From the NCBI GenBank assembly GCA_965222715.1, contig OZ244961.1, forward strand, positions 140,609 to 204,608: DNA of 64,000 nucleotides. Reading direction: 5' to 3'. The translations under genes were made by a program, and so were the position numbers. Source of the DNA: Minisyncoccota bacterium (lineage in GTDB: Bacteria > Patescibacteriota > Minisyncoccia > Phycocordibacterales > JABMNX01). This document shows, one piece after another, positions 13,347 to 59,966 of the stretch; the first letter of the stretch is position 1; each line of letters opens with the position of its first letter. The notes beneath the pieces were generated by a model. It was not told the origin of the DNA. It did not search any database and saw only the letters and a list, made by a program, of their open reading frames with translations.

Positions 13347-13680
13347 TAGCTTGTATTGGGTAGTTACTGGATATAGTTTCTATATCTAGAGGAAAGTCCG
13401 AACACGTCCACGTAAGTGGAGAAGGGTAGCGGGTAACACCCGTCTAGGGCAACCTAAGAGGTGCGAGCAGAGACGCCTAATTCGAAAGATGAGGGACTCC
13501 TTCGGGAGTAGCTCTGGTGGAAACACTAGAAGTGAAACGGCTAAATCCTTACCTACGTGCAAGGCCGTGCTGAGTTTAACTCAGAGTGCCGCTTGAGGTG
13601 TACAGTGATGTACATCCCAGATAAATGACTACCGTCGTCATTCGTGGCGATACAGAATTCGGCTTATAGATACAAGTGCA
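13347..13680 (+). ncRNA. rnpB: RNase P RNA (bacterial type A)
   Basis: GGAAAGTCCGAACAC P4 strand, AGGGCAACC-type internal segment, 3' ACAGAATTCGGCTTATAG matching the conserved ACAGAAcCCGGCUUA; P1 pairing GCTTGTAT/ATACAAG; P3 hairpin 13362-13386. Confidence 0.8.
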
Positions 13681-13690
13681 ACATATGGTA

Positions 13691-21282: not shown

Positions 21283-21421
21283 AGTGTTTTAATTTTGGTC
21301 TCAGGAATCGAAAGACGGAACGAGCGGTAGCGAGTGAGTCCGGGTAGGAGCCACTTCGTACTATTCCAGTATACTGGCATAGTACGTTAGTGAGCTGACA
21401 CCGATTCCTGGCGGGGGCACA
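21283..21421 (+). repeat. tRNA 3'-flank structured element, copy A (ends in 19-nt repeat of the tRNA-Arg 3' end)
   Basis: core TCGAAAGACGGAACGAGCGGTAGCGAGTGAGTCCGGGTAGGAGCCACTT-hairpin-TAGTGAGCTGACACCG then CGATTCCTGGCGGGGGCAC, identical to 21237-21255; homologous to copies at 48970-49098, 57131-57228 and 58836-58952. Confidence 0.7.
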
Positions 21422-21586
21422 AAACTGCAAGAAAACCATACTTACGTCTCATTTCTTGCGTTTTGTGAAGTGGGGCGATATCAAGTGAAACGAGACCATC
21501 AGCCAGTGTTGTACTCTCCATACTATGAATTACATTCCTTGTTTTATTTAGCACTTTAAAAATGTATATGGTTTAATTTATTTATC

Positions 21587-23228: not shown

Positions 23229-23338
23229 CAAAGTGCGAATGATGAGTTTAGTAACCTGACGCCAAGATTGACCGCAAATCTGCCCAAAAAACACCACAAG
23301 TACTTGCGGTGTTTTTTAGTGACTCTAAACAGTTTCCT

Positions 23339-48969: not shown

Positions 48970-49098
48970 TTTCGGTGCCCGGGACGGGAGTCGGTGTCAG
49001 CTCACTAAGCGTTATGCGCTAAGTGGCTCCTACCCGGACTCACTCGCTATCGCTCGTTCCGTCTTTCGACTCCCTTGAACCAAAATTAAAACACTGAC
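48970..49098 (-). repeat. tRNA 3'-flank structured element, copy B (24-nt repeat of the tRNA-Leu(TAA) 3' end)
   Basis: minus-strand reading: CAGTGTTTTAATTTTGGT-TCAAGGGAGTCGAAAGACGGAACGAGCGATAGCGAGTGAGTCCGGGTAGGAGCCACTT-hairpin-TAGTGAGCTGACACCGAC-GTCCCGGGCACCGAAA. Confidence 0.7.
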
Positions 49099-57018: not shown

Positions 57019-57130
57019 TTTATAGCTTATTGGTGGGGGATTTGGCGCCAGTTCTAAACTCACTCTGTTCGTTAAGAACTCGCTGCCCCGTCGTTCAAAT
57101 CACTCTCGGTAGGAAATTTATGATTCCCTA

Positions 57131-57228
57131 GGCGTCAGCTCACTAACCTCAAAATAGTTTTGTTAACAAAACTATTTTGAGGAAGTGGCTCCTGCCCGAG
57201 CTCGCCGTCGTTCGTTCCTCACGACATG
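57131..57228 (-). repeat. tRNA 3'-flank structured element, copy D (degenerate, 3' of tRNA-Tyr)
   Basis: minus-strand GGAACGAACGACGGCGAGCTCGGGCAGGAGCCACTTCCTCAAAATAGTTTTGTTAACAAAACTATTTTGAGGTTAGTGAGCTGACGCC; nearly identical to copy C in the hairpin region. Confidence 0.6.
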
Positions 57229-57285
57229 GCTCCGCTTCACAAAACGCAGAAAACCAGACGCAGGTCTGGTTTTCTTGCAGTTTTG

Positions 57286-57394: not shown

Positions 57395-57467
57395 GGACGT
57401 TACGGACACGTCCGTCAGATTCTTAACATTATTGGTCTGAAGCAACTAACCACTCTGCCACCGACGC
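57395..57467 (-). pseudogene. decayed partial duplicate of tRNA-Tyr (acceptor 5', D-arm, anticodon arm with 15-nt loop, no T-arm)
   Basis: TGCGTCGGTGGCAGAGTGG identical to the tRNA-Tyr 5' end, then diverged TTCAGAC-15nt-TCTGACGGAC. Confidence 0.6.
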
Positions 57468-57577
57468 AATGTGGCCTATTTTAGCCTGTTTGTCCTGTTT
57501 TCTCAACCCTTCTGTAACAAGATTTATACAACTATACAACTTGTATCATTGTTTTCATCAAGCTACTATTAGGTGTA

Positions 57578-58461: not shown

Positions 58462-58620
58462 ATGTCACAAGATAGATTAATAAAACTCGCGTGCCAGGAA
58501 TGTAAGCGTATTAACTACTGGTCAAGCAAAAATAAGAAGCTTGTTGAGCGAAAGATTGAGCTCAAGAAGTACTGTAAATGGTGCAAGAAGCAGACAGCAC
58601 ATAAGGAGATGAAGAAATAA
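58462..58620 (+). CDS. rpmG: 50S ribosomal protein L33
   Basis: 52 aa, CxxC...CxxC zinc ribbon (CQECKRINYW...YCKWCKK); classic rpmG-tRNA-Trp linkage. Confidence 0.8.
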   Translation: MSQDRLIKLACQECKRINYWSSKNKKLVERKIELKKYCKWCKKQTAHKEMKK

Positions 58621-58701
58621 GATACTCCTACCAAACCTGTAAAAACTGCGTAGCACCTACGCAGTTTTTACGTTATAGTGTTGGGACTTCTATAGAGTAT
58701 T

Positions 58702-58772
58702 GGGCCTATAGTTCAGTGGTAGAATAACGGTCTCCAAAACCGTCGACCGAGGTTCGAGTCCTCGTGGGCCCG
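58702..58772 (+). tRNA. tRNA-Trp (anticodon CCA)
   Basis: cloverleaf by eye, G73; anticodon loop CTCCAAA. Confidence 0.85.
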
Positions 58773-58835
58773 CAATGATACAAAACAATAGCGTTTAGCT
58801 ATTATGTTGTAACTATCATTTCGAGGATTCAAGTG

Positions 58836-58952
58836 GACTCGAAAGACGGAGCCGAAGGCGAGTCCGGGCAGGAGCCACTTCCTCAAAATATTTTATGTTA
58901 ACAAAAGTATTTTGAGGTTAGTGAGCTGACGCCGAGTCCTCGTGGGCCCGCA
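58836..58952 (+). repeat. tRNA 3'-flank structured element, copy C (21-nt repeat of the tRNA-Trp 3' end)
   Basis: GGACTCGAAAGACGGAGCCGAAGGCGAGTCCGGGCAGGAGCCACTT-hairpin(CCTCAAAATA...TATTTTGAGG)-TTAGTGAGCTGACGCCGAGTCCTCGTGGGCCCGCAA. Confidence 0.7.
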
Positions 58953-59039
58953 AAACATTTTTCATACACCTTAGAATCCACCCCTCTTACTATTTCGTCA
59001 TATGAAGAAATAGTAAGATAGTGTGTTACGTAGAATCTG

Positions 59040-59966
59040 TTAATGGTTCTTTAGAAATTTTGACACAAAGCTCTCCATTTTTTTTATTTCACTTGGGTGT
59101 AACCACTGGATATCACCATCTCGCTTGAACCACGTTCGCTGTCGTTTAGCATACTGCCATATCTTATTTCGCAACTCCTTAATCATATCTTCTTTGGACA
59201 TTTCTCCAGTAAGGTGTCGCGCCATATAACGATACTCAAGTCCAAGAGACTCCATTCGCTCCAACGATACTCCTTCTTGATTGAGTCGTTTTGCTTCATT
59301 AAGCATTCCTTCTTCAAGCCGTGCGGTAAGGCGGTTGTATATTTTTTCTTTTAATACTTCATCAGGCAGATCTAAACCAATTTTACATGCGAAGTAAGGG
59401 GTTTTGTGTACTTCTTGCGGGACACTACCGAGCGTCTCAGCTATTTCAATTGCGCGAATGATGCGCGGTCGATTGTGTATGTCTATAGTTTTTCTTCGTT
59501 CAGGGTCAAGTGCTTCAAGTCTCTCAAGTAATACATCTGTTTTTTGTGAATCAAGTACTTCTCGCAATTCTTTGTTTGGTGGTACTTCAGGAAAAGAGAC
59601 CTCTCCAAGAAGTGCCGAGAGATAAAACCCAGTGCCACCAGCAAGTATAGGGAGTTTTCCTCTCAAATCTATATCTTTGATTGCCTCATCTGCATCTTTT
59701 TTAAATTGAGAAGCAGTATAGGTTTCTGTTGGGTCAGCAACATTAAGAAGGTGGTGTGGTACTCGTTGCATCTCTTCCTGGGTAATTTTACCTGAGCCAA
59801 TGTCTAATCCACGGTATACCTGCCGAGAGTCCACTGAAATTACCTCACCATTAAATTTCTTAGCAAGAATTACAGCCACATCGCTCTTACCTGTCGCTGT
59901 TGGACCAACAACTATAAGCACCTTAAGAGGCTTTTGAGGTATATTTTCAGCCATATTTTTTGACAT
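59040..59966 (-). CDS. miaA: tRNA dimethylallyltransferase
   Basis: 308 aa, P-loop GPTATGKS, conserved DSRQVYRGLDIGSGK. Confidence 0.85.
   Translation of the reverse strand: MSKNMAENIPQKPLKVLIVVGPTATGKSDVAVILAKKFNGEVISVDSRQVYRGLDIGSGKITQEEMQRVPHHLLNVADPTETYTASQFKKDADEAIKDIDLRGKLPILAGGTGFYLSALLGEVSFPEVPPNKELREVLDSQKTDVLLERLEALDPERRKTIDIHNRPRIIRAIEIAETLGSVPQEVHKTPYFACKIGLDLPDEVLKEKIYNRLTARLEEGMLNEAKRLNQEGVSLERMESLGLEYRYMARHLTGEMSKEDMIKELRNKIWQYAKRQRTWFKRDGDIQWLHPSEIKKMESFVSKFLKNH

Follow-up and report, generated by a model that had tools for sequence, protein, structure and literature searches.

What is the 178-bp insert that lies directly 3′ of a tRNA-Trp gene in this window (the whole 64-kb stretch of DNA that was analysed), and why does it end in a second copy of the 3′ part of that gene? 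The initial annotation had described it as copy C of a repeated tRNA 3′-flank element with a core, a long hairpin, a 3′ motif, and a repeat of the tRNA end, and all four parts are in place. The parts of the locus are as follows.

58702..58773, + strand: tRNA-Trp (CCA anticodon), target and anchor of the element (ARAGORN; Rfam tRNA, 69 bits)
58756..58775, + strand: direct repeat copy 1 (R′), which starts at G57 of the T-loop and runs through the tRNA-Trp 3′ end plus CAA, belonging to the working tRNA
58775..58819, + strand: hairpin X, AT-rich and imperfect, which opens the insert as its 5′ module directly behind the tRNA (sequence, MFE fold, relatives)
58822..58843, + strand: guide region (sequence, fold, junction-triplet covariation, P1 covariation)
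58845..58864, + strand: P2 hairpin, GAC / GGA internal loop / GCC-GAA-GGC / GA / GUC (covariation, RNAalifold)
58867..58933, + strand: P3/P4 domain (covariation across the family, RNAalifold)
58934..58953, + strand: direct repeat copy 2, the tail, a copy of the tRNA-Trp 3′ part that forms P1 with the guide

The tRNA-Trp gene (58702..58773) has no encoded CCA end. Its 3′ part, GAGTCCTCGTGGGCCCGCAA at 58756-58775, recurs at 58934-58953; this repeat, put at 21 nt in the initial annotation, is exact over 20 nt, or 21 if the shared preceding C is counted, and shuffled sequence gave no match equal to it. The left end of the insert had also been said to contain the reverse complement of the Trp T-loop, and GGACTCGAA is indeed the reverse complement of TTCGAGTCC. 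In particular, GGACTC-GAA (58835-58843) complements TTC|GAGTCC of the T-loop and T-stem, and the guide of copy C therefore spans the insertion point. CGAGGATTC (58822-58830), also in the guide region, represents a duplicate of the guide or an alternative to it. Upstream of it, hairpin X takes the place of what in relatives is a terminator-like or CUGC-loop hairpin.

A Covarying Three-Way Junction

The core of copy C, GGACTCGAAAGACGGAGCCGAAGGCGAGTCCGGGCAGGAGCCACTT (58835-58880), belongs to a fold with three helical arms. Its P2 contains a tandem G.A motif and is the minimal form of an arm whose length varies. P3 is formed by GGC (58867-69) and GCC (58931-33), and P4 by AGCCACU/AGUG(A)GCU with the A bulged; P4 bears a variable 37-nt hairpin, CCTCAAAATA...TATTTTGAGG (58881-58917), which is followed by the 3′ motif TTAGTGAGCTGACGCC (58918-58933), and the conserved linkers of the P3/P4 domain are A-GG and GAC. 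A covariance model matches copy C over 58831-58953 with 88 bits, and the folding energy of the region is -47.1 kcal/mol (z = -4.2 relative to shuffles).

Across 86 family matches the core folds as a three-way junction in which all helices covary. Paired cells amount to 91% in the family alignment versus 77% in shuffles, and the covariation score is 0.36, as against 0.12 in shuffles and 0.05-0.07 when the pairing partners are slid. The P2 pairs 15:71, 16:70, and 17:69 covary (AU 16, GC 14, CG 9, UA 2), and RNAalifold independently predicts the same helices, P2 included. In P3, a GGN triplet pairs and covaries with the last three bases of the element, N′CC, and this helix takes the place that TTC:GAA holds on the intact target. 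P1, the pairing of guide and tail within the folded single strand, covaries as well. A second helix, GACTCG...CGAGTC, had been proposed in the initial annotation; it is present in copy C, but the family keeps only a 3-bp GNC/GN′C helix, which looks longer here because GAGTCC of the Trp T-loop happens to equal the conserved core GAGUCC.

G.U and A.C pairs are distributed unevenly. Core helices contain 62 G.U versus 24 A.C pairs, whereas P1 has 27 G.U and 25 A.C pairs. This excess in the core and its absence from P1 indicate that the core folds on the tRNA-sense strand and that P1 resembles a templated, DNA-level inverted repeat. As a side observation, GAAAG...UCCGGGC recalls the P4 region of RNase P, probably by chance.

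Five Copies in the Window

That copy C is one member of a repeated element is borne out by the covariance model, which finds five copies (A-E) in the 64-kb window. The two core motifs occur four to five times in the window against an expectation of 0.01-0.03, every time 3′ of a tRNA and on its strand. The other four copies are the following.

21300..21422, + strand: copy A, after tRNA-Arg(CCT), guide CAGGAATCGAA, tail GATTCCTGGCGGGGGCAC (model match 92.3 bits)
48973..49077, - strand: copy B, after tRNA-Leu(TAA), guide GGGAGTCGAA, tail GACTCCCGTCCCGGGCACCGAAA (model match 95 bits)
57111..57247, - strand: copy D, after tRNA-Tyr and its terminator-like hairpin (model match 55.2 bits)
57024..57106, - strand: copy E, small and degenerate, which lacks P2 and follows D in tandem (model match 22.1 bits, E ~1e-5)

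Copy D has no matching tail, and instead of the T-loop its guide, GTTTTGTG, matches the 3′ end of the tRNA (CAC|AAAAC). The guide of copy E, GATTTGAA, matches the tRNA-Tyr T-loop and its tail, AAATCCCCCACC, has decayed; P4 covaries even in such diverged copies (AGUUCU/AGAACU in copy E, 57024-57106). Possible 5′-truncated remnants are seen at 23246-23263 and as matches to P4 only. The tRNA cluster of copy B bears copies in two of the compared loci too (L068 and L091).

Copies A and B have hairpin X and P2 in common and differ in the P4 hairpin, whereas C and D have almost identical P3/P4 modules and differ in P2 and guide. The initial annotation had noted that the hairpin of C and D agrees almost base for base, and the shared part proves to be the P3/P4 domain with its 36-37-nt hairpin; the subfamilies that it drew are marked by a covarying pair, GGGC...GACGCC in C and D versus GGGT...GACACC in A and B. 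Its suggestion that the element spread recently between the Trp and Tyr loci, or that gene conversion took place between them, is supported by a common P3/P4 beside distinct P2 and guide, and the mosaic of modules in A-D, as read from their sequences, fits copying and within-genome recombination. Copies C and D lie 1.5 kb apart on opposite strands, which is a poor fit to a strict lagging-strand-template requirement.

A Family Found in Patescibacteria

In the collections that we searched, the family is confined to Patescibacteria, where the exact core pattern occurs 111 times in 101 genome stretches. A same-strand tRNA lies within 600 nt upstream in 77 of these 111 instances, and nearly all kinds of tRNA are represented; the tail is identical over at least 10 nt to the 3′ end of the neighbouring tRNA in 57. 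The element is non-coding and about 110-180 nt long. Its core sequence is invariant across distant Patescibacteria classes, with stems that covary and unpaired bases that are conserved. The exact core pattern is absent from viral contigs, and eight viral-contig matches to a 16-mer lie inside coding sequence and were set aside as chance.

A search of the whole window against Rfam 15 returned only tRNAs and RNase P, a permissive search of 58600-59050 (E up to 10) only chance-level miRNA and snoRNA hits, and searches at D-type and P4-only loci no family match. A literature search likewise found no description of this element family, which is apparently undescribed so far. The known tRNA group I introns of Patescibacteria differ from the element in that they sit in the anticodon loop (PMC13011429).

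A Guide across the Insertion Point

The guide complements the uninterrupted target across the insertion point, with 3 nt on the left and 6-18 nt on the right. Its last three nucleotides pair with the three nucleotides left of the junction in 51 of the 60 parsed cases, most often as TTC/GAA (46), more rarely as TGC/GCA (3), CAC/GTG (1), or GTT/AAC (1). The insertion point lies between T-loop nucleotides 56 and 57 or, in one subtype, directly after the tRNA 3′ end; these D-type copies obey the same junction-pairing rule there. In 63 of 68 family members the direct repeat begins at one fixed point, after C56 of the T-loop; its right edge varies, and the repeats measure 11-115 nt with a mode of 18-19 nt.

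No two of the 30 tRNA-Trp loci form an empty/filled pair in which the flanks are near-identical, and for that reason the exact inserted unit has to be inferred. From the sequences, it would be [tRNA 3′ part copy from G57]-[hairpin X]-[guide]-[three-way-junction core ending NCC]. Since such an insert, placed at 56|57, carries a copy of the tRNA 3′ part from G57, the tRNA remains intact and the second copy of its 3′ part becomes the tail after the core. Where tRNA and tail differ, the guide matches only the tRNA in nine cases, only the tail in two, both in six, and neither in two. CCA after the repeats, which we sought as the sign of a mature-tRNA intermediate, is only slightly commoner after the second copy, and C74 is present in nearly all copies.

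Empty Loci, Filled Loci, and Islands

The expectation that the spacing behind tRNA-Trp would be shorter in relatives was borne out, as 12 distinct relatives with the same tRNA-Trp 3′ half are free of the insert and have the next gene within tens of bases. Filled loci with an identical tRNA-Trp 3′ half number 10-11, so that about half of such loci are empty. The covariance model matches most of the filled loci and nothing beside tRNA-Trp in the empty ones. Syntenic tRNA-Trp pairs are either both filled or differ through other insertions.

Tandem arrays occur, with the two subtypes in either order, and the element also closes cargo islands of 3.2 kb (L061) and 1.8 kb (L078) that lie between two copies. 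A Pfam scan of this cargo found an HNH homing endonuclease, YdjM, a SET domain, and proteins of no known family, none of them recurrent. Within one genome, copies at different tRNAs have near-identical variable modules and differ in guide and tail; P2, which is variable, is at least 85% identical in 32% of within-genome pairs versus 1% of pairs between genomes. A tail may be foreign to the resident tRNA, as at L089, and three other loci (L113, L134, L137) have a drifted tail in common. A few long repeats end right behind a tRNA terminator hairpin or T-tract (L008, L036). Copies at the same tRNA persist in genomes whose flanks are just 73-76% identical, and the tRNA-Cys/Leu cluster bears copies in several genomes.

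None of the copies examined contains or adjoins a gene for a transposase, integrase, reverse transcriptase, or TnpB-like protein, and no gene for TnpB, reverse transcriptase, or integrase lies near the copies that lack P2 or seem to stand behind a stop codon. Nearby genes are housekeeping genes such as ftsH, gap, and ribosomal protein genes. A crude search for the IS200-TnpA (Y1 HUH) motif in 2641 ORFs of the compared loci, which is a weak test, gave no match.

Likeness to Known Systems

By analogy, we infer that the logic of the module is closest to the guide/cleavage-site pairing at IS200/IS605 ends, including PATEs and REP/RAYT. Both have two subterminal imperfect hairpins, here the covarying P2 (GGA/GA internal loop) and P4 (bulged A and U.U mismatch), and in both a short guide 5′ of each hairpin pairs with the three bases before the junction. 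The hairpin-foot guides of the element are GAA with target TTC and GGN with terminal N′CC; the correspondence is one of topology, cleavage itself being putative here. In both, the element's own base pairing selects the target; PATEs and REP/RAYT are likewise small multi-copy units without a protein gene, and the circular single-strand intermediate of IS200/IS605 would suit the layout seen here. The guides of IS200/IS605 are, however, 3-4 nt long, whereas that of the element extends 6-18 nt beyond and pairs with the right flank. IS200/IS605 elements make no target duplication, whereas an 11-115-nt direct repeat results here because the element carries a copy of the right side of its target. Furthermore, we find no Y1 transposase, RAYT, or TnpB in the compared loci, there is no evident strand bias, and the core is a conserved three-way junction.

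In TnpB omega-RNAs and Cas12 crRNAs, as in this element, a conserved scaffold is followed by a 3′ segment equal to the DNA beside a short 5′ motif, here GGTTC, and the guides of tRNA-homing type V-K CASTs share with it the 3′ part of a tRNA gene as target. The element differs from all three in that no effector gene is near, the "spacer" has an internal anti-guide to pair with, many tRNAs have a copy of their own, and the intact target stays in cis. With the group I intron IGS (P1/P10) and group II EBS-IBS pairings it shares one contiguous guide that spans the insertion point of the uninterrupted target. Group I introns have a P3-P7 catalytic core, a G-binding site, a terminal G, and a length of 200 nt or more. 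The core of the element has about 100 nt, ends in C, and lacks P3-P7, a G-binding site, and domain V, and there is no Rfam match to Intron_gpI or another intron; we rejected a group I intron. Unlike an intron, an element that duplicates the 3′ part of the tRNA leaves a tRNA that needs no splicing.

Like tRNA-integrating islands, the element sits at the 3′ part of a tRNA, leaves the gene restored, and is flanked by direct repeats of the tRNA 3′ part; like those islands and integron cassettes, it builds arrays at one site, and like integron attC it is a folded module that closes short cargo units without a recombinase. The islands differ in that no integrase is found here and that a structured core is common to different tRNA targets. 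An attC cassette was rejected, as the consensus has no R″/L″-L′/R′ boxes with GTTRRRY and no integrase is seen. In IS110 bridge RNAs, two internal loops hold target and donor guides beside a DEDD recombinase gene; the element has a single contiguous guide on the 5′ side of a three-way junction and no recombinase ORF, and we rejected a bridge RNA or seekRNA. A box C/D or H/ACA guide RNA was discarded too: the element does contain CUGA (within GCUGAC), but it lacks a C box (RUGAUGA), and its guide does not precede CUGA. Its three-way junction with conserved junction bases and its P1 might be those of a riboswitch; the element lies 3′ of tRNAs and not in mRNA leaders.

Origin and Function

We give about even credence to the hypothesis that the family consists of non-autonomous, base-pairing-guided insertion modules that target tRNA genes, or of their recent descendants. 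A transcript, or else the tRNA-sense DNA strand, would fold as a single strand and bring its core|tail junction into register with the corresponding junction of an intact tRNA gene, and a putative enzyme supplied in trans would exchange strands at the aligned junctions. This would probably involve a circular intermediate, in which the X arm and guide could splint the 3′ end of the tail onto the 5′ end of X. Templated copying between the inverted and direct repeats may then keep guide and tail matched to the local tRNA. We read as signs of mobility the fixed left and variable right edges of the repeat, the mixture of empty and filled loci, the tandem arrays, the cargo islands, the modules shared within a genome, and the foreign tails. 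Against this reading stand the lack of an enzyme gene in or beside the copies examined and of a clean empty/filled pair, the opposite strands of C and D, and the duplication of the target. Conservation of the core to this degree would, moreover, be more usual in a functional RNA than at the ends of a transposon, and long-term retention at the same tRNA possibly reflects a host function.

If these modules are mobile, they constitute a minimal system of about 120 nt without a protein gene, whose insertion specificity is written in a short guide that spans the insertion point, with a matching guide for each tRNA, and which repairs the gene that it interrupts with a spare 3′ end. They would then be a new kind of base-pairing-guided insertion, of DNA or of RNA, among the few programmable systems, beside IS200/IS605, IS110 bridge RNAs, group II introns, and CASTs, and would point to an undiscovered partner enzyme in Patescibacteria.

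A host function could also account for the element, although we consider it unlikely. It would be a cis-acting RNA, co-transcribed as the 3′ trailer of the tRNA, that works as a riboswitch-like switch with the tRNA itself as expression platform. Binding of a ligand or protein by the three-way junction would stabilise P1 (guide:tail); with P1 open, the guide would invade the 3′ half of the tRNA (T-arm and acceptor strand) and block its folding, processing, or use, the tail serving as a built-in decoy. As a variant, the element may serve as a guide RNA for a processing or modification step at the T-loop. Such a role would suit its position 3′ of the tRNA on the same strand, the aptamer-like pattern of conserved junction and unpaired nucleotides with covarying stems, and the retention of same-tRNA copies in diverged genomes. 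Where tRNA and tail diverge, moreover, the guide keeps closer to the real tRNA, and the alternative 3-bp extensions GAA:TTC and GGN:N′CC could represent balanced competing states. Precedents, in part from references in PMC12045711, are the tRNA-snoRNA dicistrons of plants and, in archaea, the pre-tRNA-Trp intron, which acts in cis as a guide for methylation. A trailer RNA is, however, hard to reconcile with its absence from half of otherwise identical tRNA-Trp genes, with tandem arrays and decayed copies, with islands of unrelated cargo genes closed by the element, and with near-identical modules at different tRNAs of one genome. In many copies a terminator-like hairpin separates the tRNA from the guide, D-type copies aim at the trailer and not at the tRNA body, and P1 shows no excess of G.U over A.C, all of which argue against it as well. 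Should a host RNA be the right reading, the element would be the first structured RNA encoded in a trailer to pair with the body of its own tRNA.

Under either reading, Rfam lacks a widespread, strongly covarying, RNA-like family. Many intergenic regions beside tRNAs that bear no annotation, and many partial tRNA repeats in these reduced genomes, are accounted for by this family, and it bears on tRNA annotation and on the delimitation of genomic islands in assemblies of uncultured bacteria.

It is doubtful that core and tail form a guide of the omega-RNA or Cas12-crRNA type, with a scaffold, a 3′ spacer equal to the tRNA 3′ part, and GGTTC of the T-loop as TAM/PAM, in which case a TnpB/Cas12-like or other RNA-guided effector encoded elsewhere would direct the element to tRNA genes. 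This reading is favoured by the behaviour of IS200/IS605 elements, which enter exactly 3′ of the TAM and have the flanking DNA as omega-RNA guide, and by a tail that starts exactly past GGTTC of the target and behind a conserved scaffold. The modal repeat of 18-19 nt falls within the range of spacers and TAM-distal cleavage, and RNA-guided systems are common in Patescibacteria (PMC12045711). Nevertheless, no TnpB, Cas12, or IscB ORF overlaps or adjoins any copy examined, no Rfam guide-RNA family matches, the intact tRNA at the same locus would be a perfect self-target, and known omega-RNAs and crRNAs have nothing that corresponds to the internal anti-guide of the spacer.

An equally improbable alternative is a SINE-like retroelement that moves through an RNA intermediate, either by target-primed reverse transcription that starts at a 56|57 nick, where the tail, transcribed along with the rest, anneals to the primer strand, or by RNA-level attack on pre-tRNA followed by cDNA synthesis and recombination. 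Its precise 3′ junction, variable 5′ junction and repeat length, and strand-specific core fold would be natural in such an element, as would long repeats that stop where a transcript would and remnants that may be 5′ truncated. No locus examined encodes a reverse transcriptase, however, and no clear CCA signature marks the ends of the repeats. The common drifted tail of three loci and the foreign tail of a fourth suggest that the tail travels with the element and is not made at each insertion. Group II introns are, in addition, reported absent from Patescibacteria (PMC13011429).

We think it very unlikely that the core has catalytic activity of its own, as a small ribozyme for the NCC|G57 junction; two versions can be envisaged. 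As an RNA-only mobile unit it would circularise itself on a splint of X arm and guide and exchange strands with the T-loop of a pre-tRNA or tRNA gene; as a tRNA repair cassette, its guide would splint a tRNA cut in the T-loop beside a spare 3′ fragment released from the tail, for ligation. Hammerhead, HDV, hairpin, twister, and pistol ribozymes were compared by eye and rejected, the nucleotides that define their cores being absent.

Hardly credible, finally, is a scar or attachment region of ordinary integrase islands at tRNA 3′ ends, a cis-mobilisable remnant between attL and attR: although the T-loop is reportedly a classic integrase sublocation, the direct repeats of the tRNA 3′ end begin in it and bound cargo islands, and comparable tRNA loci are either empty or filled, no island examined has an integrase, the core is absent from viral contigs, the block of identity begins at C56/G57 in the T-loop and not around a symmetric T-arm core site, and the same covarying core stands at about 20 tRNA species, each with its own matching guide.

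Copy C and Its Relatives in the Window

Behind tRNA-Trp, the initial annotation described a core with a long hairpin, a complement of the T-loop, and a repeat of the tRNA 3' end. These parts lie where they had been placed, and the underlying matches have zero occurrences in shuffled sequence; the RNA fold of 58831-58953 has an energy of -47.1 kcal/mol (z = -4.2). Both core motifs of this insert, copy C, reappear after tRNA-Arg(CCT), tRNA-Leu(TAA), and tRNA-Tyr, in every case on the strand of the tRNA, and a covariance model of the element, built after the motif searches and run on the window, finds five copies.

Copy C and the element copies found by the covariance model (bits)
58702-58773, +, tRNA-Trp
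58775-58819, AT-rich hairpin X of copy C, after tRNA-Trp
58822-58830, first stretch complementary to the T-loop of tRNA-Trp itself, CGAGGATTC
58835-58843, second stretch complementary to that T-loop, GGACTC-GAA
58844-58933, conserved core of copy C, with a 37-nt hairpin and the terminal motif TTAGTGAGCTGACGCC
58934-58953, exact repeat of the tRNA-Trp 3' end, GAGTCCTCGTGGGCCCGCAA (first copy 58756-58775)
48973-49077, -, copy B, after tRNA-Leu(TAA), 95 bits
21300-21422, +, copy A, after tRNA-Arg(CCT), 92 bits
58831-58953, +, copy C, 88 bits
57111-57247, -, copy D, after tRNA-Tyr, 55 bits
57024-57106, -, copy E, degenerate, 22 bits

Between rpmG and tRNA-Trp, a perfect hairpin, AAAAACTGCGTAGCACCTACGCAGTTTTT (58637-58671), looks like a bidirectional terminator, and tRNA-Trp therefore probably has its own promoter. 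Directly 3' of the copy A tail, AAAACTGCAAGAAAACCA...GCGTTTTGTGAAGTGGGGCGAT (21421-21500, +) is similar to the terminator hairpin and start of copy D (57284-57225) and thus looks like a decayed copy of the D type, the subtype sited right after the tRNA 3' end, in tandem behind A. A site undetected by the covariance model (23246-23300, +) carries GTTTAGTAACCTGACGCC, with three mismatches to the 3' core motif, 16 nt 3' of tRNA-Phe and, 11 nt farther on, CAAATCTGCCC, which is similar to the 3' part of the tRNA-Phe T-arm; possibly it is a decayed copy that lacks its 5' end. Finally, the 5' two-thirds of a tRNA-Tyr (57410-57482, -; acceptor 5' strand, D-arm, anticodon stem with a 16-nt loop, and variable arm, without a T-arm) precede the real tRNA-Tyr gene by 25 nt, a 5' fragment being uncommon for an integration scar.

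Distribution and Association with tRNA Genes

A collection of species-representative genomes has 101 stretches with the exact pattern GGAGCCACTT-N8-38-TTAGTGAGCTGAC, frequently in multiple copies within one genome. All except two are labelled Patescibacteria (Paceibacteria, Kaiserbacteria, Saccharibacteria, Spechtbacterales, Vogelbacteria, and others); the remaining two, both short contigs, fall into bins of other phyla. The exact pattern is absent from all viral contigs searched, and matches there to a shorter motif were rejected as chance matches inside genes. The covariance model yields 148 matches in the first 100 loci, about 40 of them diverged copies beyond the exact pattern.

A same-strand tRNA, of nearly every kind, lies at most 600 nt upstream in 77 of 111 instances, typically 90-140 nt ahead of the core helix P4. 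The tail of the element is identical to the 3' end of this tRNA over at least 10 nt in 57 instances. The left edge of the repeat is fixed after C56 (63/68), and its right edge is variable, with a mode of 18-19 nt, at which it takes in the tRNA end and a further C or CA. In the window and loci, the discriminator base of nearly every tRNA gene is followed by an encoded C (often CA) but not by the full CCA, which explains why the commonest repeat is 18-19 nt rather than 17. Seven repeats measure 41-115 nt and include the tRNA's own downstream hairpin.

A Conserved Fold on the tRNA-Sense Strand

Order of parts in the element, 5' to 3'
R', 3' part of the working tRNA
Hairpin X, frequently terminator-like or with a CUGC loop
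Guide, which pairs with the tail as P1
P2: A, GNC, GGA internal loop, variable stem-loop, GA, GN'C
Linker: C(G)
P3 5' strand: GGN
Linker: A-GG
P4: AGCCACU, variable hairpin, AGUG(A)GCU, bulged A
Linker: GAC
P3 3' strand: N'CC
Tail: second tRNA 3' part, from T-loop G57

When 43 copies are aligned with MAFFT, 91% of cells form pairs versus 77% in shuffles, and the covariation score is 0.36 versus 0.12 shuffled and 0.05-0.07 with slid partners. RNAalifold, run independently, gives the same helices. With the caveat of an alignment fitted to the covariance model, all helices also covary among 86 matches, including the part of P4 frozen by the search (AGC/GCU, with AU, CG, and GC variants). In the core helices, G.U pairs outnumber A.C pairs (62 vs. 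24), which argues that the core folds on the tRNA-sense strand, as RNA or single-stranded DNA. P1 has no such excess (27 vs. 25), so that the complementarity of guide and tail behaves like an inverted repeat at the DNA level.

A Guide across the Insertion Point

Three bases ahead of the conserved AG vary and are complementary to the three target bases left of the junction: GAA/TTC (n = 46), GCA/TGC where the T-loop is GGTGCAA, and GTG/CAC. The other 6-18 nt of the guide pair with the tRNA from G57 onward; at some tRNA-Trp loci the guide spans the entire 3' part, GGCCCACGAGGACTCGAA, or splits around the CUGC hairpin. The seemingly guide-less D type, including copy D, follows the same triplet rule at another site, its guide GTTTTGTG complementing CAC|AAAAC at the tRNA 3' end, and in one D-type locus (L087) a 115-nt repeat begins exactly there. 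In the folded element, P3 (GGN:N'CC) sits where GAA:TTC sits on the intact target, and the junction of the element itself is thus presented in the same manner as that of the target. Where tRNA and tail differ, the guide sides with the tRNA at 9 sites and with the tail at 2, a small sample.

Signs of Mobility

The initial annotation had proposed to test whether the spacing around tRNA-Trp is shorter in relatives. Scanning metagenomes with the final 28 nt of the window tRNA-Trp answers this and gave 30 loci, of which 12 are distinct and empty, the next gene beginning within tens of bases, and 10-11 are filled with diverse variants. The covariance model matches most filled loci and nothing adjoining tRNA-Trp in the empty ones. 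Copies also occur in tandem, as with E after D in the window, or in one array of tRNA-Cys, two copies, tRNA-Leu(TAA), and two copies (L068); two other loci (L125, L134) each hold two subtypes, in orders opposite to one another. At one cargo island (L061), 3.2 kb with three ORFs lie between tRNA-Ser and a downstream element that has the tRNA-Ser 3' end as its tail, and at L078 two full copies bracket 1.8 kb. Island cargo comprises an HNH homing endonuclease, YdjM, a SET-domain protein, and unknowns; no recombinase was found in the islands. The HNH protein (L061 3583-4107, +; 174 aa, with a homing-endonuclease-associated repeat; Pfam HNH_repeat, HNH) is the sole nuclease observed near any copy and is not recurrent.

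At different tRNAs of one genome, the variable modules are near-identical and the guide and tail are tRNA-specific. Copies A and B have X and P2 in common, copies C and D P3/P4 including its hairpin, and variable P2 regions are at least 85% identical in 32% of within-genome pairs versus 1% between genomes. This mosaic of common modules points to copying and recombination. The same drifted tail is common to three loci, and tails at L089 match a tRNA-Asp allele other than that of the resident gene; tails can thus travel with the element.

Possible Mechanism and Alternatives

The element is real and widespread, and at the level of enzymology it is unexplained. We judge the chances to be about even that it is a mobile module, non-autonomous and directed by its guide. 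The mobile unit would be R'-X-guide-core, opened at core|R and put between C56 and G57; its own R' would restore the tRNA, and the former 3' part would become the tail. R', X, and guide frequently form one long near-perfect hairpin, so the X arm and guide would hold the tail 3' end against the X 5' end, the geometry expected for circle closure. The closest working model is provided by the ends of IS200/IS605 elements, where a short guide 5' of an imperfect hairpin reportedly pairs just before the junction. The element has the same logic, such a guide being paired with the bases just before the junction twice, at the target and at the element end, and the enzyme would be supplied in trans. Several points speak against this model: the examined loci yielded no transposase, integrase, RT, or TnpB; IS200/IS605 elements are not known to generate repeats; and copies C and D, only 1.5 kb from each other, occupy opposite strands, at odds with a strict requirement for the lagging-strand template. 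Quasipalindrome template switching is a templated correction between inverted repeats, and such correction could keep the guide in step with the tRNA copy under selection, and the tail in step with the guide, in agreement with both the lack of a G.U excess in P1 and the siding of the guide with the tRNA.

It is also plausible that the element is a cis-acting RNA of the host that switches much as a riboswitch does, its guide alternating between pairing with the tail and invasion of the tRNA. Even between distant classes the unpaired bases are invariant and the stems covary, which resembles a functional RNA, and copies are kept at the same tRNA in genomes with flanks only 73-76% identical. However, this leaves unexplained the arrays, cargo islands, D-type targets, and empty loci, as well as the terminator-like hairpin upstream of the guide. 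The geometry suits an omega-RNA- or crRNA-like scaffold whose 3' spacer adjoins GGTTC, but no effector was found and the intact tRNA would be self-targeted. A retroelement agrees with 3' junctions that are precise and 5' junctions that vary, yet no RT was found in the examined loci and tails are apparently carried along. An ordinary integrase scar does not explain a common structured core with tRNA-specific guides.

Relation to Known Families

No Rfam 15 family matches, even with the E threshold relaxed to 10, and a literature search found no description of the element, which passes the defining tests of no known family in full. The tRNA introns published for Patescibacteria belong to group I, lie within the anticodon loop (PMC13011429), and have no relation to it. 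The combination of a conserved three-way junction of about 100 nt, a junction-spanning, tRNA-matched guide, and a spare tRNA 3' part is new to the resources searched.

Two matches consist of P4 only (GGAGCCACTT-hairpin-TTAGTGAGCTGAC; L023 4290-4326 and L006 5619-5655), without P2, guide, or a tRNA in front, the former about 370 nt past apparent rplM-rpsI genes (judged from translations); the P4 module may be present in other contexts too. After a tRNA-Asp (L089 3440-3570, +), an unrelated core of about 90 nt has the same layout as the element, with a terminator-like hairpin, a guide (GGACTTGAA) that matches the T-loop, and a tail similar to a tRNA-Asp 3' end, and a wider superfamily with differing cores may exist. 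One locus with a D-type copy also holds an unrelated LOOT RNA (L085 3938-4057, +; Rfam RF03000, 79.7 bits). In the window, the class A bacterial RNase P RNA (13348-13682, +; 128 bits) has a P4 region, GAAAGUCCGGGC, similar to GAAAG...UCCGGGC of the element with P2 taken out, probably by coincidence.
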